DNA from: a virus
Taxonomy: Duplodnaviria > Caudoviricetes
Length of the DNA: 64,000 nt
Direction: 5' to 3' (one strand)
Virus record (IMG/VR): IMGVR_UViG_3300029305_002995
Location: 47,158-111,157 of that record
Shown here: one piece after another, positions 1,588-23,979 of the stretch
Position numbering within the stretch: the first letter of the stretch is position 1
Layout: each line of letters opens with the position of its first letter
The notes under the pieces: model-generated
Told to the model about the DNA's origin: nothing
The model's database searches: none
What the model saw: only the letters and a program-made list of their open reading frames with translations
Position numbers and translations under genes: made by a program

Positions 1588-3417
1588 ATCAAATTGGAGA
1601 ACTTTGGAAATTAAATCCTTACAGCTTGTATATAAAGCGTCAGTACAAAACCATCTTCTAATACTTTGCTGTAATTCTTCATTTTTGTAATAAGCAAGAT
1701 TTTTTCTAATAGGATGTTCCCTATATAAATGCGGACTTCGCAAACAATCTAATTTTTCATTTCTTCTAAACAACCAACAAAACACTTCGCCATCATTCAA
1801 TAATCCATCTGGATTTTCTATACCCTTAAACCAATACTCACACGCCGCATAAAAGTCTGGTAGAATAAAAGTATATTTACCATTGATTTTCAACTTACCT
1901 GCTTTAAATCGTTTAATCATACTATCTTTTAATTCTCTAAGATAGGATTTTACATATTCATCATTTAACAAATTAGGATATAGTTCAATGGATTTCTGAA
2001 ATGGTGTTTTATCTAAATTATATGGGGTAACTCCAAATGCTGCTTTAATTGTATCTACAGAAGAAGTTAAATTTTTTAACGTACAAATAGAATCGTTAGC
2101 AATCTTTAAGATTTCTTCATCAGATATATCAGTCAAGCTCTGGAGCATCTGATAATTAATTGTTGCATTTTTAATTCTATCTTCTTCTGGATTAGTAAAA
2201 CCTGCTGTACAACCATATCGTTTATATAATTCTTTATAGTTATCCCAAGAATCGTAATATTTCCAGAGTTTAAATTGACTTTTCGTAAAGATAACTTCAA
2301 TATCTTCTTCTATTACATTATGTTCTTGACCATAAATATCTTTAATTACTGGCGAACAATTATTTTCAATAATGAACTCTCTGAAATTAAACACTCCAAG
2401 TAAGCCTTTAACCCAAGGTAAACGAACCATACGATTTTTACCCATCTTAGGCAACATCATACCTGCACCATCTGTATGTGTAATTACAACATTATTAGAT
2501 ACTCTGTTAATTGAATAATCCACATCATCTACTAAATCGAAAGTACCAAACACTTCGGTTTCAAAATCATCAATCACTATTGTTTTATCGATATTAAATT
2601 CTTCCCATACGTCAGTAGCGGAATTTGCCAAAGCAAGATAAGCTAAATGCTTATTTGGATTATTTCCACCTCTACGATTAATTTCATCTACAGTCAAACC
2701 ACACATAATTGTTTTTTCATGCTGTTTCCAAATAGATTCTTTTATAAAAACAACTTTCTTGGTTCTAATTTGTCCAGCAGATGAAGTAAAATAGATATAT
2801 TTTTCGCCTTCAAATTCAAAGCCATGATATATCAAATCTTTAATAATATCGAAATAATACACTTGAATTACCATGAAATCTTTACATAATTCATCTTGTT
2901 TTGCTTGAATAGTTCTGGTAAACGAAGATTCAAAAACAGAAATAATATCATCATTTGAAATTTCATTTTCTCTAACTTTACGAATATGATGTTTTCCTTT
3001 GGATTTAATATTAGCTTCAACCTTGACAGATAACAGTTTTAGTAGAGCTTCTTCTACGTTGTGAATTGCATTAGTTTTTACTGACATTAAATCTCTGAGC
3101 TTTTTATATTTCTTTGCCCAGAACACAACATCTTCATTTCCACCCCATAAAGCATAGTCAAATTTATCTTTAACAATATCGCTAAAGTCATTTTCATCTA
3201 AACCATATAGATTTAACTTTTTCTCAATTTCTTTATATCCAACTATGATACGCTTAACTTCACCATTAGATTTTGTAATATAGCCACCTTTTTTAATTTG
3301 ATTCTTTTCTTCTCGTAAAGTGTGAATCTTTTTATGTAGCCTTGCTTCTTTGTTGGTGTAAAAATAGCCTGTATCTATAGAATATATTTGTAATTGGCGG
3401 TCTAACAACGCTATCAC
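1588..3417 (-). CDS. YonO-like single-subunit (RdRP-family) DNA-dependent RNA polymerase, exon 1
   Basis: Motifs SAGQIR, HTDGAG, RLPWVKG, LRSPH, LQFD(VDGD). Confidence 0.85.
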
Positions 3418-4607: not shown

Positions 4608-4741
4608 TCAAAAATATACAGTTAACGTACACGATTGGCATTTATAGGGGTAGAAAAATCAAATCGTGTACAAAATCCGTATCGTTTTTTAACTTCTATA
4701 TATAATATATAATAGAAATATATATAAAATACTTAAAGCAC
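4608..4741 (+). repeat. Left arm of ~134-bp long-range inverted repeat (partner 20054-20185)
   Basis: TCAAAAATATACAG.TAACGTACAC...AATCGTGTACA...CGTTTTTTAACTTCTATATATA...ATATATAAAATACTTAAAGCAC matches the reverse complement of 20054-20185. Confidence 0.9.
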
Positions 4742-5099: not shown

Positions 5100-6600
5100 G
5101 GCTAAGATAATAAAGTTATAAGTTATTTTCTTGTTTATTTTGGTATGGATTTTAGATTTTTATAGTTCGATTTTAATTTTGGTGATTTTGTTTATTTTGC
5201 ACAAATATGGCTTTTAGTTGGACATTATTTGAAATTTGATTTATTTGTGTTTGATTTTATAGTTCATCACATTTTTTATATGGTTTTAGGGTGTTTTATC
5301 ACATTTTTCTAATATATATTTTATTGTTACATTTTTTGTACTTTTTTATTTTCATTTAGTTTTTTCTGGCTGTTTTTAAAAATGGTAATCCATTGTCAAA
5401 ATTGATTGAAATTTTTGGGAATTGTAAATTTTAAGATAAATTTTTCTGGTTCTTTTCTAATACTGCAAGCGTATGTTCTGAATTACTAAAAATTAGATTT
5501 TAGTAAAAAAACAGGGTGGGTTCATTTTTAGGTTTTTCATGGGTGAGCAATAGCTCGTATAGTATGATATTGGCTGTAAAATAGAGGTATATGCGGATAT
5601 ATATGAGGGTGATTTTTAAAAAATTTGAATATGGGGTGGTATGGGAATTAGGTGAAATAAGAGTAAATTAAAGGTTTGGATTTGGACTATTTAAAGGTTG
5701 GTTGGTATAAATTTAAGATAGATTTAAGGTAAGTTTATAGGATAGTTGTAGGGTGATTTTGGGTTAGATTTGGGGTGGATTTGTGTGTTAAAAAGGTTGT
5801 ATATAGGGTTATTTATAGGGCGATTGTAGGATGAATGTAGAATAAAACTATGACAAAATTAAGTAAGAAATTAATACAAGAATTACTGGTTTATTTTAGG
5901 GGTATGTATAGGTGTGTATGTGGTATGGGTTTTAGGATGTGTGATTAGATAGACCAGACAAGACTTCGGCTCGTGGCACTTTCGTGTGTTAAAGTGTAAA
6001 TACGCCCTACCTGCTCCGTTCATATTCCAATTTGAAAAAGCCTCAAAAAATCAAATTGAAAAGAACATACGTTCTTAGAAGATTTTTCGATTGTTAAAGC
6101 TATATCAATATTGTTAAATGATTATCAATTAACCTCCCGCTATTGGACTGAACCTTAGTTTATCAGCTAAACACAAAAAGGAGAAAAATCAAGCGTGTAA
6201 AGGTATCTTACTTTACACCGAAAAATCCAACGTAAAGTTTACTTTACATTTTCAAATATACTAATACAGTATACTTTCTCCCAAAAATCACTTTTTCTCC
6301 CTCTCAAAAAACCTCTCAAAAAACCTCCTAAAAAACCGCATAACTAAGCGAAAAAACAATATTTTTCCATTTTCAAAAACGCTTAAAAAAAGCCTAAAAA
6401 TATATGTTTTCTTCTTATATCCCTTATATCCCTTTTTTTCTTCCTATATCCTCTTCCCTTCTTCCTAATCACATTTCATTATAATTCTATCGTATTCCAT
6501 TTACTTATATTTTTCCTTCTCCCTCCCTCCTATCCTCCCTTTTTGTACAAATTGCACAAAATTTCAAAAATCATAAAAAATTGCTCAAAACTCTATTTAC
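5100..6600. other. Non-coding region with abrupt G/T-rich to C/A-rich skew switch; candidate genome end or pac region
   Basis: About 5.1-5.95 kb is G/T-rich, about 6.0-6.6 kb is C/A-rich; no ORFs; divergent transcription on either side. Confidence 0.45.
6063..6074. promoter_or_regulatory. LexA (Cheo) box
   Basis: GAAC-ATAC-GTTC, matching the Bacillota GAAC-N4-GTTC consensus. Confidence 0.55.
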
Positions 6601-6711
6601 ATACTGCAATCATTATGTTACAATAAAATCGTACCAAACAGGTACAAACAACAAACATTAAGCAAGTAAACAAAACAACAAACAACACAAATCAAAAAGG
6701 AGTACAAAACT

Positions 6712-7605
6712 ATGATGAACACTAACACTACTAACATCAATTCCATCCTCAACACCAACAAATCCAAAAAGCATGCTTGCGGTCATTGTCAGTGTTGCAA
6801 CAAAGTCACTGACTTCCTCGCACTTCCAATGAAAGACCGTGGCGGCAGAAACGCATATCTTTGTGAAGAGTGCACTTCTAAAGTCTTTGACTATTGCGAC
6901 GAAAACAGCTCTATCTACGGCGTTGAAAAAGTCCATCCATACACTTTCAGCATTGAGCTTGAAGTATCAGCACACACCGACACGGCAAGCCTTGAACTTT
7001 CCCACATTGATTACTTGCCAACTTCTGACTGCACTGTTGAATGTGAATTCAAAAGCCCAATTTACAACGGTTTTAACGCTCTTTCCAAACACGCCACCCA
7101 AACTATCGCCATGTTATTAGATGACAATGAAATTGAAATGGACTGGACTTGTGGAACTCATTTCAACGTTGGCGTAAACGGTAAAATCAATGAATACAGT
7201 ATAGCATACATCGCAAGATACTATCGTGATTTGTTTATTCCATTAAGCAACGCCATGAAAGAGCATCCAATTACTACTGAGCGCATCTATGGCAGAAACT
7301 TCTCGACATGGGCTGAACCTTGCAACGCATATACTTATCCTTATGAACATTGCAACTTTATTAATATTCAGCATACTACCCACATCGAGCATAGACTCTG
7401 CAAGTATGTTACTGGCGAACAATACGCTGAATGTATGAGATACTGTCGCAAGCTTACCGAGATTATCATCAACAACTTTGTTGACTACCTTACCGTAGAA
7501 ATCAAAGATACTAACAGATACCCAGACCGTGAAAGTTATCTGAAACATAAAGCAGAAGTAACTGCAAAAAAACTTGTAAACGAGTTTTTAAAAAGAGCGA
7601 GATAG
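6712..7605 (+). CDS. Putative amidoligase (COOH-NH2 ligase family)
   Basis: FSIELEV, SDCTV.CEFKSP, CGTHFNVG and IEHRL motifs. Confidence 0.7.
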   Translation: MMNTNTTNINSILNTNKSKKHACGHCQCCNKVTDFLALPMKDRGGRNAYLCEECTSKVFDYCDENSSIYGVEKVHPYTFSIELEVSAHTDTASLELSHIDYLPTSDCTVECEFKSPIYNGFNALSKHATQTIAMLLDDNEIEMDWTCGTHFNVGVNGKINEYSIAYIARYYRDLFIPLSNAMKEHPITTERIYGRNFSTWAEPCNAYTYPYEHCNFINIQHTTHIEHRLCKYVTGEQYAECMRYCRKLTEIIINNFVDYLTVEIKDTNRYPDRESYLKHKAEVTAKKLVNEFLKRAR

Positions 7606-7754
7606 TAAGGTTATAAGTTAAAAGGGCGAGAGTAAAATCTCGCCCGATACCTAAAACAAACATTTTCAAAAATAATCAAAAATTACACAAATTTTCAAAA
7701 ACATCTTAAAATTTTATCAACTTTCAAAAATCACAAAAAAAAGGAGATAATACC

Positions 7755-8084
7755 ATGAAAAAAATGACTTTGACTGCATCTGATATGAAAAAAATCCTTC
7801 TTAAAAAATTAGCAGATGAAAACACATATTTCACTGAATCTGATATTCTCTTTTATCAAACTTCGCCGCAACGATATAAAATTATCATTAAAGACTATGA
7901 ACATATTGTTTTTATCCTTAATATATTTAATGATGAAGAAGATGACGCAGAACTCATTGCAGTATGGCGAAAAGATAAAGACCGCACAAATAAAAATTTG
8001 ATTATCTTAGAAGAACATCACGAAAACAAAGTTATAGAATCTGTGTTGAAACAACTTGGATATTATATCGGTACACGCTTTTAA
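7755..8084 (+). CDS. Hypothetical protein
   Basis: AAGGAG RBS; terminator downstream. Confidence 0.75.
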   Translation: MKKMTLTASDMKKILLKKLADENTYFTESDILFYQTSPQRYKIIIKDYEHIVFILNIFNDEEDDAELIAVWRKDKDRTNKNLIILEEHHENKVIESVLKQLGYYIGTRF

Positions 8085-8647
8085 TAGTTTTATAGAGAGT
8101 CTGGAAACAGACTCTTTTTTTTATGCTTTTTTCTTTACACAAAAAAGCTGCATTTTCAAAAACGTTAAGTTTTTGTATTTTTAATGTTTTCAAAAATAGT
8201 TGTTTTTGATACTATTTTCAAAAACGCTCAAATATTGTATTGTTAAAAAATTATCACTTTATCCGAAAATCATAATATAATTACTTAAAAAATCCAAACT
8301 GTTACAAAACGACCCTACAATACGATACAATCAATTTTAATCCTTTTAACCTATAACAATATACACTATACCGCAAAAATGCCTTACAGAAGCTCTCAGA
8401 CGCTACAAATCAATTTTAATATAATAAGAAAATAAACAGTTAAACAAAACAGAAAAATTCTAAACTTGCAACTAACTTACAACTAACTTGCATTTTCAAA
8501 AACTAAATTTTATTGCAGAAAATTTTAGAAAATAAATAATCAAAGAAAATTCAAAAAAACACTTGACAAAACAAATTCAATAAGCTATAATCTAATCAAA
8601 CAAGAACATAAACAAAACGACAAACAACAAAACAGGAGGAAACAAAA

Positions 8648-8929
8648 ATGAAGAAAAACATAATAAAATATACTTGCATTAACTGCAAATATTTTAATGC
8701 GTGCGGAGACGAAGAACGCACAGAACCATGCAAAGGAAAAATCCCCGCAATAATAAAGTACAAACACCACGCAGAACCAGAAACAATAAAAGAATTAAAC
8801 CTCGAAGCAGTTTACAGAAACAACTCTTTCGCCTATCGTGGAATGAGTTATGAAGAATTTGTAAAACTGGAACTTACCAAAATTCAGAAAGATTTAGAAA
8901 ATGGCGTTTTGCTTTGGTATGAAGCATAA
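8648..8929 (+). CDS. Hypothetical protein with Cys-rich N-terminus
   Basis: Promoter plus AGGAGG RBS. Confidence 0.75.
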   Translation: MKKNIIKYTCINCKYFNACGDEERTEPCKGKIPAIIKYKHHAEPETIKELNLEAVYRNNSFAYRGMSYEEFVKLELTKIQKDLENGVLLWYEA

Positions 8930-8951
8930 ACAACTAACAGGAGGAAAAACC

Positions 8952-9065
8952 ATGAAGCAGAAAATCAGAAATTTCGTAAACTATATTCTTGTAGAATCCG
9001 CTTTTGTAGCTGTCAGCTTGTCAATGATTTTTGTTCTTTTGGAAAGAACTTGTGCAAGATATTAA
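8952..9065 (+). CDS. 37-aa hydrophobic peptide (not in ORF track)
   Basis: AGGAGG RBS; MKQKIRNFVNYILVESAFVAVSLSMIFVLLERTCARY. Confidence 0.6.
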   Translation: MKQKIRNFVNYILVESAFVAVSLSMIFVLLERTCARY

Positions 9066-9495
9066 AAGAAAGTAAAGTTATAATTTATATATAATTAAGG
9101 GAGTCGAAAGACTCCCTTTCTTTTATACCCTACACAGAAAAATTGTATTTTCAAAAACACTTGATTTTTGATACTATTTTCAAAAACGTTAAGTTTTTGT
9201 ATTTGTATATTTTTAGATATGGAATTTTTCTGCTTAAACCTTAAATTTCAAATTTACAACAAAATTGAATTTTTGAAAACTGGAACAACTTGTATCTGGA
9301 ATTATCTGAACATCTGGAACAATTTTTGACGATATTCAAAAATATTAAATTTTTGATGACGTTTTCAAAAACACTAATCTATTGCAGAAAATAATTATTT
9401 TAATAAAATTTAATTCACCTATTGACATAATGCAATCATTACACTATAATATAATTAAAGACAAAACAAACAACGACCCACAGGAGGAAAAACAA

Positions 9496-9747
9496 ATGGA
9501 GAAAATAAACCTTGCTCATGTAGTAGAAAAATTCTTAATGGAGAAAAAATGCCACTTTGATGATATTTATCAAGGCTTTGCAGATTGCCTTGTATGTATT
9601 AAAATTACTGGTGACTGGAAGCATGACCATTTAAGAACTAAAATCTTACTCGAAGAAAACTTTAATGTACTTTTACATAAAGAAGATGCAGAACCATCTG
9701 AAGAAGATTTTTATACCGCAGTGCATACTTTTATGATTAAAGATTGA
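9496..9747 (+). CDS. Hypothetical protein (start corrected)
   Basis: AGGAGG RBS before MEKINL. Confidence 0.75.
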   Translation: MEKINLAHVVEKFLMEKKCHFDDIYQGFADCLVCIKITGDWKHDHLRTKILLEENFNVLLHKEDAEPSEEDFYTAVHTFMIKD

Positions 9748-9758
9748 GAGGAAGAATA

Positions 9759-9977
9759 ATGATGTTTCCATATAAAAATTACAAAGTGGAATTTTCCTAT
9801 TATTCCGAAACCAAAAAGAAAAGAATAACGGAGTCAGAATATTACGGATGCGAATACAGCGCGCAAAATGCTGTCAATCGTTGTAGAGTTGACTATCAAA
9901 ATTATAAAGATTTAAGGATTGAATCAGTTTATTTTGAAAATTATACTGCATGGGAATTTACAGATGCTTGGGAATAA
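9759..9977 (+). CDS. Hypothetical protein
   Basis: GAGG RBS; terminator downstream. Confidence 0.7.
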   Translation: MMFPYKNYKVEFSYYSETKKKRITESEYYGCEYSAQNAVNRCRVDYQNYKDLRIESVYFENYTAWEFTDAWE

Positions 9978-10400
9978 ATAAAAATCAGAGAGTCAGAAAT
10001 GACTCTCTTTTTTATTGCGATTTTACTTTTACAACTAACCAGCGTTTTCAAAAATTCAAAGAAATTGTAATAATCAAGATAAAACAAATTAAGTCAATTT
10101 TTGAAAACACAATACTTTTGTGCGGCTTGTTTCTGTATATATTTGTTTTTGAACATGGAATTTTTTTATTTTATTACAATTTAACTTAATTTTCAAAAAT
10201 ACTACTTTCCTGTCAACAGCTGTATGATAATAATATGACAACAAAAAATCAACATTTCTAAAAACATTTTTCTTTTGTCTAAGAAAATAAATATAAAAAT
10301 AAATTTTCAATAACTACTTGACATAATAATATTATTATGTTATAATCAAATCAGAAAATAAACAACACAACAAACAATATAAAACAAAGGAGTTAAAACT

Positions 10401-11258
10401 ATGACAAAAGAAAAATTCAATATCTATGAAGAAATTACAAACAGAATTATTAAACAGCTTGAAGCAGGAACTATTCCATGGCACAAACCATGGTCTGGAG
10501 TAGCTACTGGAGCATTTAACAGAGTTTCCAAAAAACCTTATAGCCTGTTGAATCAAATGCTTTTACAGCACGAGGGAGAATATGCTACTTTCAAACAGTG
10601 GAGCGCACTTGGCGGCAAAATCAAAAAAGGCGAAAAATCCGAAATTGTTGTTTTCTGGAAAATCCTTGAATCTGAAAAAGTAAATGATAAAGGCGAAAAG
10701 GAGAAACAGATTATTCCTATGCTTAGATATTATAGCGTTTTTCATATCTCACAAATTGAAGGCGTAGAACCTATCTCAAAACCACAGGTACAGCACGAAC
10801 CAATTAAAGAAGGCGAAGAAATTAAAAACAATTATAAAGCAAGAGAAAATTTGACTATTAACGAAATCGTGACAAATAGAGCCTTTTACAACCCATCTGG
10901 TGACTATATCGAAGTACCATGCAAAGAGCAGTATTCAGATATTGCAGAATTTTACAGCACATTATTCCATGAGATGACTCACAGCACAGGACACAAAGAC
11001 AGGTTAAACAGATTAGATAAAACCGCACGCTTTGGGAATAATGAATATAGTAAAGAGGAACTTGTAGCTGAAATCGGAGCTTGTAGCTTAATCAATATGA
11101 TTGGCTTGGAATCTCCAAAAACTTTTAATAATAGTGCTTCATATATCCAGAGTTGGCTCAAAGTATTGAAAGATGATAGTAAATTCATTGTATCTGCAAG
11201 TAGTAAAGCAGAAAAAGCGGTTAAATATATCTTAGGTGAACAGCTTGTAACAGAATAA
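10401..11258 (+). CDS. ardC: ArdC-like ssDNA-binding anti-restriction protein with zincin-like domain
   Basis: GTIPWHKPW, YSLLNQMLL, TFKQW..LGG.IKKGEK, HEMTHSTGH, YSKEELVAE. Confidence 0.9.
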   Translation: MTKEKFNIYEEITNRIIKQLEAGTIPWHKPWSGVATGAFNRVSKKPYSLLNQMLLQHEGEYATFKQWSALGGKIKKGEKSEIVVFWKILESEKVNDKGEKEKQIIPMLRYYSVFHISQIEGVEPISKPQVQHEPIKEGEEIKNNYKARENLTINEIVTNRAFYNPSGDYIEVPCKEQYSDIAEFYSTLFHEMTHSTGHKDRLNRLDKTARFGNNEYSKEELVAEIGACSLINMIGLESPKTFNNSASYIQSWLKVLKDDSKFIVSASSKAEKAVKYILGEQLVTE

Positions 11259-11511
11259 AAAAATATACTGAGGACTCGAAAGAGTCCTCTTTTTTTGCTA
11301 TTACACAAAATCAGTATTTTTAGAAACGATGATTTTTTGCATTTTTTCTTATCACAAGAAAAGTCAATTTTTGAAAATCCTATCAAATTGCAATATACCA
11401 TTTTTTGAGAAAATAATTATTTTAATAACTCTTATATTTTGTATTGACTCTTGAAAAACATAGTGCTATAATATAGTTAAGGATAAAAAATAAATTATAG
11501 GAGGTTTATTT

Positions 11512-11838
11512 ATGAATAACGAGCAGAAAATTATGAGTATACTTGATTTAATTATGGAACGCCTTGATAAAATAGAAAGTAGATTTGATAATCTGGAAAA
11601 TAGATTTGATAGATTTGAAATTGACGTAAACAAGCGTTTTAATGACCTTGAGTCTAACATGGACAAACAATTTGCAGAGGTTAAACGATGTTTAGCAGAT
11701 GTCGCAGAAGGAATCAACGCTACTATTTTACATTCAGCACAAGATACACAAGTATTAAATAAACGAATTGACGAAATAGAAAAAATTGCAATTATCGCAT
11801 TAAAAGAAGCAAGCCTCGCAAAATATAGGAATATCTAA
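11512..11838 (+). CDS. Coiled-coil protein
   Basis: Heptad-like RLDKIES/RFDNLEN/RFDRFEI repeats; own promoter and terminator. Confidence 0.7.
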   Translation: MNNEQKIMSILDLIMERLDKIESRFDNLENRFDRFEIDVNKRFNDLESNMDKQFAEVKRCLADVAEGINATILHSAQDTQVLNKRIDEIEKIAIIALKEASLAKYRNI

Positions 11839-12084
11839 AATACACATTAAAAAGAGTCTGGAAACAGGCTCTTTTTTTATACGCTTTTTATCTTTACAAG
11901 TTATTAAGATTTTTGAAAATGGAATTTTTTCGCTTTCAAAAATAGAATGTATTCAAAAACATCTGGAAAATAAATATTAAAATAAATTGGATTTTACTAT
12001 TGACATACTACAATAGTTATGTTATTATATACTCAAACAAGGACATAAACAAAACGACAAACAACAAAATAGGAGGAAAACAAA

Positions 12085-12474
12085 ATGAAAATCAATGTAA
12101 TGACTCTTACCAATGGCGAACTTAAAAAAATTGAAATCGAAAACAATTTATCCAGTTTACAGAATCTCGTAGGCGGTTATATTGAAATCCCTTGCTTGTC
12201 TGAAAGATTGACCGCTCAAAAAATTATCACCATTATCAATGAAGAAGGAAAATTTTTAGATTTGACTCCCGAAATTGCTTGTGTTTATGATGGTAAACTC
12301 CATGATATAGTTTTTGGTACGGTTATCTTTGCAAGTACAGACTATGAAGGAAATACACTGGGACTTAATACAGAACAGATGGAATATATCAAAAATGAAC
12401 TTAGAAATGATGCTATTGTTCATTTAAGAAACAGAAATAAAACGTATATGCTGAAAGTATTACAGTTTGAATAA
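12085..12474 (+). CDS. DUF3846 domain protein
   Basis: LQNLVGGYIE...INEEGK...DIVFGT. Confidence 0.8.
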   Translation: MKINVMTLTNGELKKIEIENNLSSLQNLVGGYIEIPCLSERLTAQKIITIINEEGKFLDLTPEIACVYDGKLHDIVFGTVIFASTDYEGNTLGLNTEQMEYIKNELRNDAIVHLRNRNKTYMLKVLQFE

Positions 12475-12660
12475 AAAAATTAGGGAGTCTTTCGACTCCC
12501 TTTTTTTATTTACAATTTTACAGATTATTTGTATTTTTGAAAACAGAAACTTTTTGCTTTTATTTTAATTAATATCAAAATAATAGTATTTTTGAAAATA
12601 GACATAATTTGTAAATTTCCCTCACCTGCTTGACAACGTGACTTTTAGTTGATATAATTA

Positions 12661-12793
12661 AAATACAAAGACAGCATTTAATTCCTTTTGATTTGTGCTA
12701 ATGTTGTTTGTTGTTGTTATTTTCTTCAAATTAAAAGCTATTTCTTTTCCTGTTGTCTTTGTATTTGGCGGTGCTTACGGCATCGCCTTTTTT
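12661..12793 (+). ncRNA. Putative antisense sRNA complementary to early-gene leaders and RBS
   Basis: Own promoter (12630-12658), no ORF, 15-bp closing stem (12661-12675/12752-12766), U/G-rich loop, terminator 12767-12793. Confidence 0.7.
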
Positions 12794-13222
12794 ATTACAA
12801 TGTTTTACAAGCCGTCTAAAAGCCTTTATAAAGCGTTTTAATACACGTATAGTAACTTAATCAATAAATAATACAAAATAGATTTTAGACATATTACAGA
12901 AGCGGAAAAATGATTTTAGACTATATGATATATTCAAATATGATAATTAGAATAAAATCCAACTTCAATCAGATTAAAACAAGATAGCAGCGTTTTTGAA
13001 AAAGCAAAGAATTTGTATTTTAACAAAAACAAAAAACTTGAATTTTTGAAAACACTATTTTATTGCAAATAAGATTAGATAATTAGATGATAAGCAAAGA
13101 AATGAATTTTAATTTATTTGATAAAACTACTTGACATATTGCATTTAATATGCTATAATGTAGATGGTAGATAAGCTACTAACAACAAACAAAACATAAA
13201 AGCACAAAAGGAGAAATGAATT

Positions 13223-13426
13223 ATGAAAATCAATGTAGGTTACAAAAAGAATGAATGGTTAGCTGTATATGTTACTGCTGATGGCGAAAGAGAATTTGCA
13301 ATTTGCAATACATATGAAGAAGCGGAAAAAGAAATTAACCGTTTAAGAAATTGTGGTATTTGTATTATTGGAACTATGACAACAAGATTTTATAATCATT
13401 ATGTAGAGGAAATTATTGATAAATAA
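13223..13426 (+). CDS. Hypothetical protein
   Basis: Promoter, RBS and terminator cassette. Confidence 0.75.
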   Translation: MKINVGYKKNEWLAVYVTADGEREFAICNTYEEAEKEINRLRNCGICIIGTMTTRFYNHYVEEIIDK

Positions 13427-13738
13427 CAAATCAAATCAAGGGAGTCGAAAGACTCCCTTTCTTATTTGCGCTACTGGACAATTTATTAGTATTTTTGAAA
13501 ACGTCACTTCCCTGCTCTAATTTCAGAATAGCAATAAAATTCCGTTTTTAACAATACAATTTTTTTGCTTGGAACAAAATAATATAATATTTGAAAACAC
13601 TTTTCTTTTGTCTAAGATAGTAAATATAAAAATAATTTTTATAAAACTACTTGACATACTTTAATTATTATGCTATACTCTAATCATAGAAAATAAACAC
13701 ACAAACAAACCACAAATCAATTAAAAGGAGAAGAAATT

Positions 13739-14407
13739 ATGATTAGTAGTGAAAAGATTCTTGAAATGCTGAATAATGGCAACTATGAAGAACTAAAAGA
13801 ACTTTGTAAACGTGATATGGTGTCTAAAAGCTTAAAAGCAAATGGCGGCACAAATGCAAACAAACAGCTTAAAGCGTTTGAAAAATTTTTGAAACTATCA
13901 CAGAAACAGCCCAAAGAATTAGAACGTATCGTTCATTTTGATATGGTAAAAGGCGACGAAGCAAAAGCATTGTGCAAAGAAGGTCTTTCCGCTTTGTTTA
14001 TTATTCCTTCTTGTCCATTTTATAAAAATATCGAGAGTGTTCCAATGACTGGACAGGCAAAGCTCGGTAGTATTGCAGATTCAATGAATACAAAATTTGA
14101 TTTTACTATTGAAAATGCAGTTATTGATTTTGCTATGAAATACGCAAAAACAAATACTGCGGACAAACGTTTTAGAAACTTATATCTTCCAAACGGTGCT
14201 TTGTTCGACATTGAACTTATCAAAGAAGTTGTAAACGTTCTCGGAGATTGTGAAGTGTATGGAGTTGATAACGGAAACAGAACTTTAATTAGTCCAATCC
14301 TTTTACAATCTAATAATGGATATGCTCTTGTTTGTCCTCGAAAAAATACAGAGCAGGACAAAGAAAAATGTAAAACCTATGATGATTATAAAAACATGAT
14401 GGAATAA
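13739..14407 (+). CDS. Hypothetical protein; C-terminus resembles a beta-clamp domain
   Basis: FDIELIKEVVNVL...SPILLQSNNGYALVCPR pattern. Confidence 0.6.
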   Translation: MISSEKILEMLNNGNYEELKELCKRDMVSKSLKANGGTNANKQLKAFEKFLKLSQKQPKELERIVHFDMVKGDEAKALCKEGLSALFIIPSCPFYKNIESVPMTGQAKLGSIADSMNTKFDFTIENAVIDFAMKYAKTNTADKRFRNLYLPNGALFDIELIKEVVNVLGDCEVYGVDNGNRTLISPILLQSNNGYALVCPRKNTEQDKEKCKTYDDYKNMME

Positions 14408-14615
14408 AAAGTGGGAGTCTGGTAACAGACTCCCTTATTTAACATTAAACAAAATATTAGTGTTTTCAAAAACATTAAGAAAATAATAATTTCGATAAAA
14501 CAGTAAAAAATATTTGACAAACTGGAAAAATTATGTTATAATACAAATGCAATAAGGAAGTAAACACAACAACAAACTATACTTATTGCAAAATACGAAA
14601 GGAGGTACTTGCTTT

Positions 14616-14789
14616 ATGGTTAAAATCGTGCAAAAACAAGATGGTTATTATATCCTCGAAGCACAAATTGATGGCTTAACTATCGTTAAAGGCTTGATGG
14701 ATGCAGACAAACCATTAGAAAAAATTGCAAAAGAACCTAAAGCAGATGGATTTTATTTACATATTCCAGACGAAATAATTTGTAAATAA
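14616..14789 (+). CDS. Small hypothetical protein
   Basis: AAGGAGGT RBS after a promoter. Confidence 0.65.
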   Translation: MVKIVQKQDGYYILEAQIDGLTIVKGLMDADKPLEKIAKEPKADGFYLHIPDEIICK

Positions 14790-15135
14790 ATGAAGTCGGA
14801 GGGAATTTATTCTGACTGCCAATACATAATAAATTCCCTCTTGTACCTTATTCAATCAATGATGTGTAATACAATATGTAAATGCAATTCACGGAATAAA
14901 TTATAAATAGAACCTTATTTTTTAGAAGAAAATAAAATAGAAGAAGAAAAGCGAAAAGGATTGATTTTCAAATATCAGTCCTTTTTGTTTTGTACAAAAA
15001 TATCATGTTTTTGAAAATACATATAATATTATTTAGTAAATATATACACAAACTACTTGACAACATGATTTCAGTATGTTATAATACAGTCAAGAAAATA
15101 AACACAAATGCAAACAACATGAAAGGATTGATATT

Positions 15136-15618
15136 ATGTTATACTGTGCTTATGGTAGTAATATGAACTTGGAACAAATGGCTTATAGATGCCCTAACTC
15201 AAAAATTGTAGGGACTGGACAAATTAAAAATTATCAGTTAGTATTTAATATGTGTGCAGATATTATTAAAAGCGACAATGCGGAAAATTTTGTTCCAGTT
15301 GTTCTCTGGGAAATCGCAGAAGAAGATTGGGAAAGATTGGATATTTACGAAGGTTATCCACATTTCTATACAAAAGAAGTTGTTACAGTATCTTGCGGAA
15401 AAAACAATGTAGAAGCTATCGTATATGTTATGATAGACGATAACAAAGGTATTGAGCCGCCTATGTATGATTACTTTATGGGTATTTTAGCAGGATATAC
15501 GGAAAATAATATCAACACAAAACCGCTGTATGATGCTTTGAAACATTCACAAGAACATAAAACAGTACATTCTAAATATGTATATGGAAGATTATCTAAG
15601 AAACTTAATAGACGATAA
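15136..15618 (+). CDS. Gamma-glutamylcyclotransferase (AIG2/GGCT-like)
   Basis: YCAYGSNMN...RCP, LDIYEGYP. Confidence 0.9.
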   Translation: MLYCAYGSNMNLEQMAYRCPNSKIVGTGQIKNYQLVFNMCADIIKSDNAENFVPVVLWEIAEEDWERLDIYEGYPHFYTKEVVTVSCGKNNVEAIVYVMIDDNKGIEPPMYDYFMGILAGYTENNINTKPLYDALKHSQEHKTVHSKYVYGRLSKKLNRR

Positions 15619-15647
15619 ATATATATATTTTAATGGAGGAAAATAAT

Positions 15648-15905
15648 ATGAAAAAATGGTGTCTTATTGACGAAGCAAGAAATATTATGGATTTATTTGT
15701 ATACGACAACAAAGATTTAGCTATTGCCGATGCAGAGAATTTATGGAGTCGTTTGACAAATTCTGATAAAATGCAAAGAACAATGTTTCTTGTAGGTTTA
15801 TGTAATGTAGAACAAAACGAAGATGGTAAATGGGATTTTGCAGAAAATAAATATGGGCTTATTGATTGTGATATTTATGAAGTAGCAAAAAATTTTATAG
15901 AATAA
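15648..15905 (+). CDS. Hypothetical protein
   Basis: GGAGG RBS; operon context. Confidence 0.7.
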   Translation: MKKWCLIDEARNIMDLFVYDNKDLAIADAENLWSRLTNSDKMQRTMFLVGLCNVEQNEDGKWDFAENKYGLIDCDIYEVAKNFIE

Positions 15906-15934
15906 ATATATTTTGTAATACAAAGGATGATGCG

Positions 15935-16327
15935 ATGAAAAAGAAAACAATGCAGACATATAAAAATTATGTTTGCCCTAAATGCTTTAATATTCTGACT
16001 CAATGTAATTGTGATAAGTTGTCTGATAAACTCATTTATATCGATGTAGGTATTCAAGAGCATATTAAAATCCTAAATGCCAAAGGTTATAAAACGCTAT
16101 TTTGTTGCGAGTCTCATTATGAAAGAAATGATTTGCAATTATATATTTCCTTTGCCTATCAGCATTATCATTTAGGCGAACTACCGCATGGTTTTAAACG
16201 TTCTGCAGATGGAAGGAATATAGAATATATCTTTAATTCAAAGCTATCCAGAGACGCTTACAGCCAATGTAAAAACGATGTATTAAAAGAACTATTAGAA
16301 TGGTGCAAAGCCTTGCCGAATTTATAA
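15935..16327 (+). CDS. Hypothetical protein (Zn-binding N-terminus; ID..I...LN.KGY.T..CC..H motif)
   Basis: ORF track and motif. Confidence 0.7.
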   Translation: MKKKTMQTYKNYVCPKCFNILTQCNCDKLSDKLIYIDVGIQEHIKILNAKGYKTLFCCESHYERNDLQLYISFAYQHYHLGELPHGFKRSADGRNIEYIFNSKLSRDAYSQCKNDVLKELLEWCKALPNL

Positions 16328-16635
16328 TAAAAACATTAAAGAGGATTAAAAGGGAGTCTTTCGACTCTCTTTTTTTATTTACAATAAAATAGCATTTTTG
16401 AAAACAAATATTTATTGTTATTCCCTACTCTGACAAAATATAATTATTTTTGAAAATATAATTAAGCTGCCATAACAGAAAAATCTTATATTTGAAAATG
16501 CTAAGAAAATAAATATTAAAATAATCAATTTTTTCTTTCAAAAATCCTTGACATAATGAATGTATTGTGTTATACTATAATCAAACAAAGGAAATAAATA
16601 AAACAACAAACAATGTATCAAAAGGAGAATGAATT

Positions 16636-17250
16636 ATGATTACACTGAATCAGCTTAATTGTTCCAGATGTTATCGTTTTGTAGATAACAATTTGAAATC
16701 TTATAAAGTGGAATGTATTCGCTTTTATAAAGAAAATAAGGTTGTAATTCAAGTTGATAATGGTTGGTTGACTGTTAGAAAACAGGGATGGACAGTTGAT
16801 TTGAAATCTCTTGACCTTCCTATTTCTGAAATCAAAGCTAAAAGAAAAGAAAAACTGGATGGCAATGAAGTTTTCTATATGAGCCTTGGGACTGAAAAAT
16901 ACGGTTCTGAAAAGATTTGTGTACTTTATATTCCTGCTGATATGTTAGGAATTAAATTTGCAGAATATAAAAAACAGTCTGATTATGTACAGGCTATCTA
17001 TACAGGCGAACAGGGAATCTATATTGAAAAATTTGTAGGTACTTTGAATTGTAAATTGCGATTTCTTAGAGAAGAATATGCAAGATATTATAAAAAAGTT
17101 GACGAATATGCTTTGATGGTTACTAAAGAAGAAGTTTTCGATGAATTTTTCAATAAATTGGTAGAACTTAAAGAAGCTATCAAAGCAGAACAAAAACGTG
17201 TTTACAATTTAACTGTTGAAGAAGCAGTAAAAGAAATGAAAGAGGTGTAA
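16636..17250 (+). CDS. Hypothetical protein
   Basis: First gene after promoter 16548. Confidence 0.75.
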   Translation: MITLNQLNCSRCYRFVDNNLKSYKVECIRFYKENKVVIQVDNGWLTVRKQGWTVDLKSLDLPISEIKAKRKEKLDGNEVFYMSLGTEKYGSEKICVLYIPADMLGIKFAEYKKQSDYVQAIYTGEQGIYIEKFVGTLNCKLRFLREEYARYYKKVDEYALMVTKEEVFDEFFNKLVELKEAIKAEQKRVYNLTVEEAVKEMKEV

Positions 17251-17253
17251 TGT

Positions 17254-17586
17254 ATGACAGATAAAGTATATAAAACTGCTTGTACTTTCGGTTTTGACGA
17301 AGAACTGGAAAGGCTTGAAAAAGATTTGTTATCTGTTAAATATGTTCAAAGTGTAGATTTTGACATTGATGGTTTTTACGACAATATCAATTATATTATC
17401 ACTATTTTCAAGTATGCAATTCCAGTGACTTTGAAAAATTATTTTGAAGTTAGACGCACAATGTTAAAAGAAGTGCTTGTGATTATGGGAAAACATGGTT
17501 TGTCAAAAACTGGTGATGCTATCGAAGATTACGGAGAGCATTATTATATTGTACGCAGTTATAATCCAGACAATAATGCAGAATAA
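17254..17586 (+). CDS. Hypothetical protein
   Basis: Tightly coupled ORF with GAGGTG RBS. Confidence 0.75.
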   Translation: MTDKVYKTACTFGFDEELERLEKDLLSVKYVQSVDFDIDGFYDNINYIITIFKYAIPVTLKNYFEVRRTMLKEVLVIMGKHGLSKTGDAIEDYGEHYYIVRSYNPDNNAE

Positions 17587-17599
17587 GGAGTGAAATATA

Positions 17600-18034
17600 A
17601 TGACATATATTTCTATGTTGCATGGTGGCACTGATAGTCAGTATCACAGAAGCCCTATTATTATCCATGATGGAATGTGGTATTGTGCAGAATTTCAGAC
17701 TGTTGAGCAGTTGGATTTCTTTGCTAAAACTTTAGGTTTTACCTATGAATTAACCGAAGAAGAAAAATGGATGAATACTAAAAAAGTATATCAAAAATAC
17801 AGAATGAGCCATGATATTAAAACGGCAGATAAACGCTTTTGGACTTTTGAAGATTTGCCAGATGGAGTAAAACCTATTAAAGCATTATCTAATAGACATA
17901 TCGTTACTTGCTATTATATCAATACTGGCGATTGTATTGTGATTTACAGACCGAATCCAAACGCTAAAGAAGTTTATAAACCATTAAGCCTCACAGAACA
18001 TATTAACCATCAAAAGATTTACGGTAGCTATTAA
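17600..18034 (+). CDS. Hypothetical protein
   Basis: AAGGAG RBS. Confidence 0.75.
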   Translation: MTYISMLHGGTDSQYHRSPIIIHDGMWYCAEFQTVEQLDFFAKTLGFTYELTEEEKWMNTKKVYQKYRMSHDIKTADKRFWTFEDLPDGVKPIKALSNRHIVTCYYINTGDCIVIYRPNPNAKEVYKPLSLTEHINHQKIYGSY

Positions 18035-18048
18035 GGAGAATAATTACA

Positions 18049-18174
18049 ATGAAAAGAAAATATATGTATCTTTTAGAAAGAATTAGGGATTGTTCTGATT
18101 GGGAAAAAGGCATGAGAATTTGGGCAGATTCTCCTTGTACTGGATGGAGAATTGTTAAAAAAATTAGAGTATAA
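18049..18174 (+). CDS. 41-aa hypothetical peptide (not in ORF track)
   Basis: AAGGAG RBS; MKRKYMYLLERIRD...KKIRV. Confidence 0.55.
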   Translation: MKRKYMYLLERIRDCSDWEKGMRIWADSPCTGWRIVKKIRV

Positions 18175-18197
18175 AAGAATTATTTTAAGCGGAGGAC

Positions 18198-18722
18198 TTG
18201 AGTATGTGTAATTTTGATGAAGTAATTGCAAAGAGCATTGAATTGCATAATGCAATCAATAAGCTTAATGATGAATCTAAGGTTCTCAATTCTATTATCG
18301 CAGAGAAGAGAGAAGCAAAGAAGCAAGACATTATGAATGACTTGCAGAGGTATATCGATATTATGACAAAGCTTGATATTAAGGTTGTTGAGTTTAAGAC
18401 CAATAGTTTTATGTACTACAATGAAATGAATCGCAGACTTGGCATTAAGATTCGCAGATGGAGTCAAGGTGTTCAAATTGATTTGGGTTGTTGTTCTACT
18501 GTCATGAACGGTTTTTATACATTCCACTCTATTGGTCATGTAGCTGCTGGACTTAGACATGAAGATATTATGAATGGTTTTTGTGAAAAGTGGGATGACA
18601 TTAAGAAAGGCATGGACACTTTCTTTGCTAAAGAAATTGAAAAGATTTTGGAAGATAGAAAAGCAAAGGCAATTAAAGAAAGAGAATGTGCTATTAGCAA
18701 ATTGACCTCAATTAGCAGATAA
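18198..18722 (+). CDS. Hypothetical protein
   Basis: GGAGG RBS. Confidence 0.75.
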   Translation: MSMCNFDEVIAKSIELHNAINKLNDESKVLNSIIAEKREAKKQDIMNDLQRYIDIMTKLDIKVVEFKTNSFMYYNEMNRRLGIKIRRWSQGVQIDLGCCSTVMNGFYTFHSIGHVAAGLRHEDIMNGFCEKWDDIKKGMDTFFAKEIEKILEDRKAKAIKERECAISKLTSISR

Positions 18723-18737
18723 GTGGAGGATTGAAAC

Positions 18738-18908
18738 ATGTTTGAAACTAAGAAAGATATATATAACGAACTGACAAAGCTTTTGACAGACTATGAGAAT
18801 CCTATGGATGTAGAAGATTATGATGATATTGATTGGGAAGCAGAACTTTATGAAATGTTGGTAAAGATTCAAAACAGATGGGAAGATACCATCACGGCAG
18901 ACATTTAA
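18738..18908 (+). CDS. Small acidic protein (not in ORF track)
   Basis: GGAGG RBS; MFETKKDIYNEL... Confidence 0.65.
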   Translation: MFETKKDIYNELTKLLTDYENPMDVEDYDDIDWEAELYEMLVKIQNRWEDTITADI

Positions 18909-18937
18909 AAATGTAATTTTAAACGGAGGATTTAATT

Positions 18938-19132
18938 ATGAGTGAAACAGTAAGAATTTGGCTTGAAGAACTTTATAAAAATGAGATTGAAGAAATCAAA
19001 GGAACTATTGAAAACGAGCATATTTGGGAACTTGGATATGATGGAGAAGAGCCGAATCCGCATACAGAAAATATCGAAGTGCTGAAAGAATATATCGAAG
19101 TGCTTGAAGAGAAGTTGGCTGAACTGAATTAA
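18938..19132 (+). CDS. Small acidic protein
   Basis: GGAGG RBS. Confidence 0.7.
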   Translation: MSETVRIWLEELYKNEIEEIKGTIENEHIWELGYDGEEPNPHTENIEVLKEYIEVLEEKLAELN

Positions 19133-19160
19133 AAGGATAATTTTATAGGGAGGGGCAAAC

Positions 19161-19397
19161 ATGGAAAATAATGAAAGAATGTACTATGCAGGAGTCGATA
19201 TGACAGATTGGGATTTTTCTTTTAAGGAAGATGACCCTAAATTTATCTACAAGGCATTTATGGCAGTATGCAACTTTGCGGAAGAATTTTCTGGTTGTGT
19301 CGGTTGCCCGTTGAGAGATAAATTGTGTTTCTCTAAGCACGGGCATATGTTTTGGGGTAAGGTTCATAGAGAATTGACAGATGTGAATCTAAGATAA
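19161..19397 (+). CDS. Small Cys-containing protein
   Basis: GGAGG RBS. Confidence 0.7.
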   Translation: MENNERMYYAGVDMTDWDFSFKEDDPKFIYKAFMAVCNFAEEFSGCVGCPLRDKLCFSKHGHMFWGKVHRELTDVNLR

Positions 19398-19422
19398 AAT
19401 GACGATTTTATAAGGAGATTTA

Positions 19423-19608
19423 GTGATTATGAAAAGGATTTTTCGTGATACAGAATCCAATGAACTAATTACAGAGCAGGAACTAAAAAATGAATTTCTA
19501 TATTATTGTAAACATCTAAGTAACGACCCAAGAACTTTTGAACAGTATATTAAAGACTGTACAAGTAAAAACGGATTTTTAGAGGAAGTTAAAAATACAA
19601 CTAAATAA
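19423..19608 (+). CDS. Small hypothetical protein
   Basis: AAGGAG RBS; terminator downstream. Confidence 0.65.
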   Translation: MIMKRIFRDTESNELITEQELKNEFLYYCKHLSNDPRTFEQYIKDCTSKNGFLEEVKNTTK

Positions 19609-20053
19609 ACAAATTAAGGGAAGTAACATCAATTTTACTTCCCTTTTACTTCCCTATTTTTTATACAGAAAATTAACATTTTTGAAAACAATCATAATAT
19701 TAAAATGGCTGCTTAAATACGAATTGTAAAATAATGTAAACGTATATGAATTTTATTTAATCATCCCCAAACCGTCTATAAGCCATTTTAAGACAGTTTA
19801 TAGATTCAATGACAGGTTATCTATCTAACCACCTAAAAATAGAAAATAGACCTATTACAGAAGCGGATATAAGCAAATATACATATTAGATATATGGATA
19901 TTGTTTGTAGGAATATTTATTTTCCAAAAAACTATCTGAAACAAAGTCTTTGTAAATAAATCAGATATTGCAGGTAAACTTAATTTTTGAAAACAGTTAT
20001 TTCATGTAAATGCCATTCTTCCCCATCGTCAACTGGAAATTAAATTTTTTATG

Positions 20054-20185
20054 GTGCTTTAAGTATTTTATATATCTCTTATTATTATATATATAGAAGT
20101 TAAAAAACGTTACAGATACTGTACACGATTGGGTATCTGACAGTTAAAAATAGCTATTTTGTGTACGTTATCTGTATATTTTTGA
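20054..20185 (-). repeat. Right arm of ~134-bp inverted repeat (partner 4608-4741)
   Basis: Reverse complement matches 4608-4741 except for the ~25-bp core spacer. Confidence 0.9.
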
Positions 20186-22456: not shown

Positions 22457-22608
22457 TTGAACACACTAAGAAAATAAATATTTCAATAAATTTCAGAAAA
22501 CCCCTTGACATAGCAAAATCATTATGCTATACTATAATCACAGGAAGAAAGTAAGTATTCCGATAAACAATAACAAACACAAAAGTAAATCAAAAGGAGA
22601 AATGAATT

Positions 22609-23979
22609 ATGTTGGAAAAAGCTACTATCCCTATGAACGCAAGTCAGATTAAAAAAATGGTACTCGCAGATAAACTTGATTTTAACCATGTTGTACAGCG
22701 TGGTTTGACTTGGGAAACTGCAAGAAAGTCCAAGTTTATCCATAGTATGATTGAGGGTTATCCATTCCCTTCTGTTTATGCAAAACGTGAAGTGTCCGAA
22801 GAAAACAAATCTAATAAACGATATATTGTTCTGGATGGCAAACAGCGTCTGACTACTGTTAAACAGTATTTGAATGATGAATTTAAACTGAGTGTCGTTG
22901 AACCTATCACTTATTTTGACGAGACTGTAAACGAAGAAGTTACAGTTGATATTTCTGGAAAACTGTTTAGCGAACTTCCAGAATCCTTGCAGAATGTTTT
23001 GAACACTGTTTCCTTTACTGTTGTTTATTATGACAATTTGACCAAAGAACAGGAACGTGAAATGTTTAAGAGACTTAATGCAGGTAAACCGCTGTCCTCT
23101 AAATCCAGACTGCTTGCTTCTTGTCGTGATATTGAACGTATGCTTGACATTGGTTCTCACCCACTGTTTGGCGAACTGCTGACTGACAAAGCAAGAGAGC
23201 ATAAGAGTCAGGTTACTATCGTTATGAAAGCATGGTTGATGCTGTATGACGATATTGGACACACTTCTTTTGCAGGTAAAGACTTTAGCAATGTAATGGA
23301 AACTACTGAAATTGCTGACAAACAGAAAATTGAACTGCACAATGTATTTAGTATGATTATGGATATGCACAATATTCTGATTGGACAGAAAGAAAAGAAA
23401 GTTGCTAAAAAACTTTACACTGAAACTCACATGATTTCCCTTGTACCATTTATTAAAAAAGCTATGGATGATGGTATTGGAGCAGAAATGCTTGTAGACT
23501 GGCTCATTAGCTTCTTTGGTGTATCTGGTCGTGTAGCAAGTGTAGATAGAGACTATAATATGTCTTGTTCTTCTGGTTCTGCCAAAAACTCTAATATCGT
23601 AACCAGACATGATGCACTTGAAAAAAGCTATGAAGAATTTTTCGCTGATTTTAATGCAGAAGTTGAAGGAACTGACGATGTAGAAGATATTGACGAAGTT
23701 GAAGAAGTAATGGAAGAAACTATTGAGAATGATACTGTTGAAGAAGAATCCTCTTTTGAGGATTCTTCCGACAACACCGAAGAATTTATTGAAGATTCTG
23801 TTGAAGAAGTGGTTAATGTTAATGAAAACTCAGAAGTAGTAAATGATATGACTCTTGAAGAAATTCTCGGAGATGTAACCATTGAAGGTGTAACTGATAC
23901 AGTCGAAGAACATGATATTGCCGAAGAATCAGTTGTAGAAATTAAAAGCGAAGTAAACAACGAAGAAACCGAAATGTAA
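22609..23979 (+). CDS. DUF262 (ParB/Srx-like) protein with long acidic tail
   Basis: QRGLTW, SMIEGYPFP, LDGKQRLTT, FKRLN; about 110-aa D/E-rich C-terminus. Confidence 0.8.
   Translation: MLEKATIPMNASQIKKMVLADKLDFNHVVQRGLTWETARKSKFIHSMIEGYPFPSVYAKREVSEENKSNKRYIVLDGKQRLTTVKQYLNDEFKLSVVEPITYFDETVNEEVTVDISGKLFSELPESLQNVLNTVSFTVVYYDNLTKEQEREMFKRLNAGKPLSSKSRLLASCRDIERMLDIGSHPLFGELLTDKAREHKSQVTIVMKAWLMLYDDIGHTSFAGKDFSNVMETTEIADKQKIELHNVFSMIMDMHNILIGQKEKKVAKKLYTETHMISLVPFIKKAMDDGIGAEMLVDWLISFFGVSGRVASVDRDYNMSCSSGSAKNSNIVTRHDALEKSYEEFFADFNAEVEGTDDVEDIDEVEEVMEETIENDTVEEESSFEDSSDNTEEFIEDSVEEVVNVNENSEVVNDMTLEEILGDVTIEGVTDTVEEHDIAEESVVEIKSEVNNEETEM

Follow-up and report, generated by a model that had tools for sequence, protein, structure and literature searches.

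A putative trans-acting small RNA complementary to the A/C-rich early leaders of an SPbeta-like gut phage

Introduction

The enterobacterial small RNA GcvB uses a G/U-rich region to silence ACA translation enhancers located upstream of the Shine–Dalgarno (SD) sequence (PMC3879156). In SPbeta, MrpR is the one regulator of numerous promoter cassettes at scattered sites, which it reaches via a repeated element, SPBRE (PMC10516654). The phage small RNAs described in the accessible portion of one account have either one phage gene or host mRNAs as their targets (PMC12197685). Little is understood about how very strong early genes are switched off in phages that rely solely on host sigma-A promoters, and a literature keyword search, with subscription papers mostly outside its reach, found no account of a phage RNA of the kind outlined below.

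Here, we describe a small-RNA gene in the final 64 kb of a 111-kb virus record that is 81% complete; this 64-kb stretch is referred to as the window. We regard it as probable, from complementarity and by analogy, that the RNA is a trans-acting, multi-target repressor of early translation, GcvB-like in action but not GcvB.

The phage and its early cassettes

The window encodes a eukaryote-type RdRP-fold protein (1579–3417; PF05183, YonO-like), a tyrosine recombinase (gene 21475) and a DUF262 protein (gene 22609). The product of gene 24154 (311 aa) is 35% identical to those of syntenic genes in relatives that bear the Pfam label MrpR_C_cat; direct confirmation of this gene as MrpR was not obtained by Pfam or PDB comparison, and neither PF22823 nor PF07508 has a direct match in the 81%-complete record. 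Because of the YonO-like polymerase and the MrpR-like gene, we call the phage SPbeta-like, a label that reflects gene content. The same phage is present in nine other assemblies, with an identical RNA region in all of them; judging from the sample identifiers, which we take to denote goat and sheep gut, it is presumably an uncultured phage of the ruminant gut. Contigs of its relatives fall in Clostridia, Lachnospiraceae and Ruminococcus bins, a weak hint as to the host.

The interval from 6.6 to 24 kb contains about 15 sigma-A promoters close to consensus; downstream of most come an A/C-rich leader, an SD, a single gene or a few genes, and a terminator. The spacers of the promoters at 6596, 9422, 10318, 12000, 13131, 13651, 16548 and 22505 contain a common dyad (ACATA...TATG), and in the cassette promoters of relatives AACTAC flanks the -35 element on both sides; these motifs are candidate operators for the product of gene 20349 or of the MrpR-like gene 24154. 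Inverted repeat arms at 4662–4741 and 20054–20130, about 15.3 kb apart, enclose the early region, and in the relative L164 the recombinase gene is flipped relative to its neighbour genes. Many TTTTCAAAAA and TTTTTGAAAA motifs occur within cassette spacers at 6370–20000, with an orientation switch near 10–11 kb.

Structure of the RNA gene

Only one promoter in the array, that of the interval 12630–12793, reaches a terminator without an intervening gene. The parts of this interval are as follows:

12630–12658, plus strand: sigma-A-type promoter (TTGACA at 12630, 17 nt, TATAAT at 12653–12658, TG extension; 12/12)
12664–12793, plus strand: predicted small RNA of about 130 nt, its start inferred from promoter spacing
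12661–12676, plus strand: 5′ arm of the closing stem (from the fold), itself A/C-rich and resembling the start of a leader
12678–12694, plus strand: anti-SD segment with the sequence CCUUUUGAUUU, which is complementary to AAAUCAAAAGG and forms a weak inner helix with 12727–12737
12702–12718, plus strand: G/U-rich seed, open in the fold and complementary to the AACAACAAACAACA tract, its first 16-mer identical in L094
12751–12766, plus strand: 3′ arm of the closing stem (from the fold), abutting the terminator
12767–12793, plus strand: intrinsic terminator, a 9-bp stem (12767–12787) plus U6

The perfect promoter and the terminator-enclosed, ORF-free RNA reported in a preliminary description are thereby borne out: a frame of 48 codons from GTG (12695–12841) lacks an SD and reads across the terminator, and the RNA units have no conserved ORF on either strand. 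The 15-bp closing stem of that description exists, although its length is 16 bp counted from 12661 or about 13 bp if transcription starts near 12664–65; the loop exists as well, but it is longer than quoted (predicted at 12677–12750), and its anti-SD part is hidden by the weak inner helix. The predicted fold has an energy of -41.1 kcal/mol (z -7.56; 0 of 200 shuffles as stable), and the predicted cost of opening is about 10 kcal/mol for the anti-SD part and about 1.5 for 12702–12718. With its own promoter, an intrinsic terminator and no conserved ORF, the element has the attributes of the trans-acting small-RNA class and is, on sequence grounds, a stand-alone small-RNA gene, presumably expressed by host sigma-A polymerase. 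The flanks and spacer of its promoter are unlike those of the phage's cassette-promoter family, and its context score is the second lowest of 17 promoters.

The gene lies between a DUF3846 gene and a 67-aa orphan. Gathering-level Rfam matches in the window are confined to tRNAs, no match at 12500–12900 is better than E 0.47, and megablast against GenBank phages gave no match. Three established classes were considered and rejected. For c4 antisense RNA, there is no Rfam match, and the neighbours named above are not an icd-ant operon. For a cis-antisense RNA or type I antitoxin, there is no opposite-strand promoter of at least 10/12 nearby, the only frame is one of 10 codons that is not conserved, and the leader matches are gapped. 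For GcvB itself, there is no covariance-model match, and a phage record with Bacillota-type signals and phage cassettes as predicted targets stands against Hfq-dependent repression of amino-acid transport from a proteobacterial chromosome.

Pairing with the early leaders

For the core of the RNA (12675–12722, 48 nt), pairing with each of 11 cassette leaders is predicted, with energies between -21.7 and -35.6 kcal/mol. These values are inflated by the low complexity of both partners and by the use of promoter scanning to choose the leaders; about -19 kcal/mol per leader is accounted for by composition alone. The predicted targets are:

6630–6714, plus strand: leader of gene 6712 (297 aa); duplex -32.5, z -3.0; net -19.0
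8597–8650, plus strand: leader of gene 8648; duplex -29.7, z -2.7
9456–9498, plus strand: leader of gene 9496; duplex -26.1, z -2.5
10352–10403, plus strand: leader of ArdC-family anti-restriction gene 10401 (PF08401/PF18818, phrog_7245); duplex -28.6, z -3.1
12034–12087, plus strand: leader of DUF3846 gene 12085; duplex -28.3, z -2.2
13165–13225, plus strand: leader of gene 13223; duplex -31.0, z -3.3
13685–13741, plus strand: leader of gene 13739; duplex -24.8, z -2.3
14548–14618, plus strand: leader of 57-aa gene 14616; duplex -29.9, z -3.1
15091–15138, plus strand: leader of gamma-glutamyl cyclotransferase-like gene 15136, a weaker candidate; duplex -21.7, z -1.2, alone not significant
16582–16638, plus strand: leader of gene 16636 and its downstream operon; duplex -30.4, z -3.9
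22539–22611, plus strand: leader of DUF262/GmrSD_N gene 22609, beyond the main array and the best candidate; duplex -35.6, z -4.7; net -21.6

In the leader of gene 14616 (14545–14585), the AC tract sits in a hairpin loop (GCAATAAG / CTTATTGC) and is a possible loop–loop target.

Summed over the 11 leaders, the duplex energy is -318.6, compared with -214 ± 20 for dinucleotide shuffles (0 of 500 as good), and shuffling the leaders in place of the RNA has the same outcome; the group comparison is somewhat circular because the set was assembled by promoter scanning and partly by eye for AC richness. Two tests are independent of that choice. When 135 start regions in the genome are ranked, cassette leaders make up nine of the best 10, the tenth being that of the DNA polymerase III alpha gene, and exact 12-mer matches elsewhere in the 111 kb, on either strand, number five, all in leaders (6712, 13223, 14616, 16636 and 22609). 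After accessibility correction, the 11 leaders reach net values of -13 to -22 kcal/mol, versus 0 to -7 for 11512, 20349 and 24154. The target list has a soft edge because leader 20763, not above shuffles, nevertheless reaches net -14.4. A duplex of 35 nt formed within a closed loop would face a topological constraint, which counts against the proposed pairing. A second anti-SD site for AGGAGG-type leaders (12739–12756) was also tested and ruled out.

Much of the original proposal survives these comparisons. The four exact blocks of leader complementarity quoted in it are all in place, and the composition-matched shuffles that it called for came out in its favour. Its complement of leader, SD and AUG holds for the AC tract and SD, but pairing with AUG is minor: predicted duplexes cover the AC tract, the SD in about half of cases and AUG rarely, since they stop 4–11 nt ahead of AUG or earlier. 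A single trans-acting RNA addressing a common 5′ leader is backed by the computational tests (shuffles, relatives and matched change), yet the silencing of a whole takeover module is too wide a claim and fails for leaders 11512, 20349, 20763 and 24154 (promoter-driven and tract-less, two of them of likely repressors), which pair no better than shuffles.

Counterparts in related phages

Relatives were reached by following the recombinase. A unit of the same layout (type A) is found in L094/L095, L161 and L169, then in G041, G057 and G048-50 (four other lineages). Type-A members combine a strong promoter and a terminator with a 9–16-bp closing stem, an anti-SD made of pyrimidines and a tract of GUU repeats; z-scores of the fold run from -3.6 to -8.2 across seven members. 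The letters of the closing stem differ between members and pair in all of them, MAFFT/RNAalifold gave no column-by-column alignment, and the terminator hairpin of relatives has two-sided changes in six of 11 pairs. The recombinases of RNA-bearing lineages are 43–60% identical, and the backbone of their tree is without resolution.

A model built from four lineages with the window sequence excluded (R2) retrieves the window RNA as the top match in its own genome (E 2.9e-4), the model being mostly one of sequence, with a composition bias of 6.4 bits and rough E-values, and a model of the L094 clade only (R1) misses it (E 0.96); homology of the window RNA to those of its relatives is therefore likely, not certain. 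A second type (type B; L175:3727-3878 and G018-G053) is an anti-leader RNA of about 150 nt with other hairpins and its own promoter and terminator; it keeps the order of anti-SD then anti-AC and occurs in 13 human-gut records of one clade (86–100% identity). When all loci collected were scanned with a generic promoter–noncoding–terminator detector, the output consisted of these units and a single false match.

Many relatives are without such an RNA. A pattern search of ten further related records gave no new member, exact-motif scans of viral and metagenome contigs yielded nothing or only chance or coding matches, the ten-kb flanks of 54 YonO-like loci contain no such unit, and L165-L168, with the whole early region covered, have neither the RNA nor promoter-linked ACAACA leaders. 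We conclude from sequence comparison that the window RNA and its relatives are a real, conserved and uncurated RNA family.

Several observations concern genomes lacking the RNA. In L165:6976-7360, L166:8690-9840, L167, L168 and L001:1424-1620, the early region opens with two to four promoter-driven non-coding units; these have a ACCTTGAAAA motif, which we take to recall the boxA of rRNA operons, and few internal promoters occur. Such phages possibly use antitermination in place of many cassettes. The distant relative L001 has two twister ribozyme matches (1756–1807 and 2613–2672) at the start of its early region. In an unrelated 376-kb contig of a jumbo phage (G062:C113 215000-235000, L317), about 19 cassettes have near-consensus promoters and AC-rich leaders, many of them lacking an SD; the 52 kb examined contain no RNA matching these leaders.

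Matched change of RNA and leaders

The preliminary description had also proposed a check in related phages, where RNA and leaders indeed change together. The leaders of this phage terminate in AAAUCAAAAGGAG and its RNA carries CCUUUUGAUUU; the corresponding sequences of L169 are GAAAGGAAGUAUU at the leader end and AAUACUUCUUUUC in the RNA; in type B, the leaders (ACCAAC...GAAAGG) are accompanied by an RNA with CCUUUCUGGUGUUGGU. In a 6 x 6 matrix of RNA–leader energies with row and column effects removed, limited to six lineages, the own-phage assignment is the best of 720, and it is the best of 120 for the five type-A lineages; it is also best for the 5′ 22 nt (the anti-SD part) alone. G041 is the weak case in the matrix. 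Each RNA pairs with its own leaders better than its shuffles do (z -2.6 to -7.4). Records with such an RNA are also where promoter-linked ACAACA leaders are concentrated (five to eight in G000, G041 and G057, two in G048-50, and 0–1 in other virus records).

This fit to own-phage leaders bears on two alternatives, each of which we hold to be improbable. The first is that host mRNAs with CA-rich enhancers are the main targets, in a takeover role, or that the RNA activates, stabilises or guides the processing of early mRNAs. GcvB does act on CA-rich host leaders (PMC3879156), and known phage small RNAs often act on host mRNAs (PMC12197685), but the specific fit, and an SD coverage that predicts repression, argue against it. 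The second is that the RNA is a sponge or decoy, its U/G-rich loop capturing an RNA-binding protein of host or phage, and that the complementarity is a trace of origin from an inverted leader. A closed stem exposing a low-complexity loop, and a 5′ arm resembling a leader start, agree with such a sponge and with its origin by inverted duplication; there is no reason, however, for a sponge to follow the SD variant and AC tract particular to each phage or to keep anti-SD before anti-AC in both structural types.

Leader recombination and the origin of the RNA

Five assemblies of the same phage (L005, L006, L007, L009 and L012) lack 5.37 kb, comprising cassettes 6712 to 11512 and including ArdC; L008, L010 and L011 have the full form, and the RNA gene is kept in all assemblies. 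We call the leaders recombinogenic because this deletion runs from leader to leader, joining 6668–6692 (leader 6712) to 12046–12070 (leader 12085) at a near-repeat that shares no more than 10 identical bases. Pairing is retained by the resulting chimeric leader, at -27.0. A plausible origin of the RNA is an inverted leader copy placed behind a cassette promoter, which would give stem and loop together.

Such recombination could also have stranded an inverted leader copy between promoter and terminator, with DNA-level exchange keeping it leader-like and no RNA function involved. The 5.37-kb deletion agrees with that scenario, as do the G–U wobble counts (42 versus 14 positions raw), for which per-base rates show no clear difference after base-composition correction. 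We nonetheless rate it as the least probable of the explanations considered, since the RNA is present as one copy per phage, on the same strand and with the same part order, behind an intact strong promoter and before an intact terminator; its stems are re-paired with different letters across lineages as divergent as the recombinase identities above; and no single leader has a perfect inverted copy in the RNA, the matches being gapped.

Model for function

In the preferred reading, that of a multi-target repressor, host sigma-A polymerase would transcribe the RNA gene, and the RNA would fold such that the closed stem displays a single-stranded G/U tract. In about 11 early mRNAs, this tract would nucleate on the unstructured AAC/ACA tract that lies about 20–45 nt ahead of the start codon; the duplex would then zip on into the anti-SD segment, with a predicted cover of roughly -43 to -9. 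Both an ACA-type enhancer and the SD would be masked, which, on the GcvB precedent, would reduce initiation and probably hasten decay. The standardised leader would thus serve as enhancer and address, and any cargo gene moved behind one would fall under control. Since the anti-SD consists of U-rich CCUUUU or CUUCUUUUC and differs from a general CCUCC, the AC tract would be the source of specificity, and the RNA would spare most host mRNAs as well as the repressor-like genes of the phage.

Most likely, the RNA would, on building up, dampen or shut off early cassettes that are strong and possibly toxic; in this lineage, it may also have a function in the dormant state. The latter would apply the same pairing mainly in a prophage or episomal state or in superinfection exclusion, a constitutive RNA silencing leaky or incoming early transcripts. 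We regard this timing variant as rather unlikely, giving it about a third of the weight of the explanation to which it belongs. It draws on a promoter that departs from the cassette-promoter family in this phage and L169, and that here and in L169/L094 lacks the common context that could be an operator, on the leaders of MrpR-like, small repressor-like and recombinase genes being weaker partners in all lineages checked, and on repression by SPbeta MrpR via a repeated promoter element (PMC10516654). Against it, G041, G057, G048 and the type-B phages have the RNA behind a promoter of the ordinary cassette kind, so early co-expression and accumulation are the more general reading, and the missing PF22823 and PF07508 matches and an MrpR likeness resting on 35% identity to Pfam-labelled relatives weaken the case for dormancy. 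Of the timer or lysogeny lock suggested at the outset, a timer or damper accordingly fits better, and the lock is less supported.

More broadly, we give even chances to the idea that SPbeta-like gut phages possess an RNA-addressed regulon, in which the A/C-rich leader is at once enhancer, recombination handle and address, and one RNA, re-tuned or re-invented per lineage, switches off all cargo behind it as a master regulator of the early or dormant programme. If true, the phages would possess a plug-in off-switch whose reach extends automatically to anti-defence cargo newly shuffled in, ArdC for instance, and the RNA would provide an orthogonal multi-gene repressor for Gram-positive bacteria; the six lineages provide natural cognate and non-cognate RNA–leader pairs.

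Comparison with described systems

Like GcvB, the phage RNA is predicted to act as one RNA on many mRNAs, with a G/U-rich single-stranded seed directed at C/A-rich tracts just upstream of the SD. It differs in having no sequence or Rfam match to GcvB, in belonging to a Gram-positive-type genome and in having the phage's own standardised leaders as targets; its seed, moreover, lies inside a closed stem-loop, and an anti-SD is also present.

Among phage RNAs, c4 (P1/P7), sar (P22), and OOP and aQ (lambda) likewise pair with phage mRNA, block expression and steer development, but each is directed at a single gene or operon, for the most part in cis (PMC8198154; PMC12197685), whereas the RNA described here is predicted to address about 11 transcription units via a common leader. 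The PeSL promoter/terminator cassettes of T4-like phages resemble the present array in that early genes unrelated to one another are bordered by recurring regulatory parts, which give rise to indels (cf. the 5.37-kb deletion); in the accessible portions of their descriptions they appear as recombination points, without a trans-acting RNA (PMC4122927; PMC2839356). Finally, MrpR/SPBRE shares with our system a single regulator for many cassettes and the same broad phage type (YonO-like polymerase and MrpR-like gene). The phage RNA differs as a parallel at the RNA level, and it may constitute a second layer over a regulon of the MrpR/SPBRE type.
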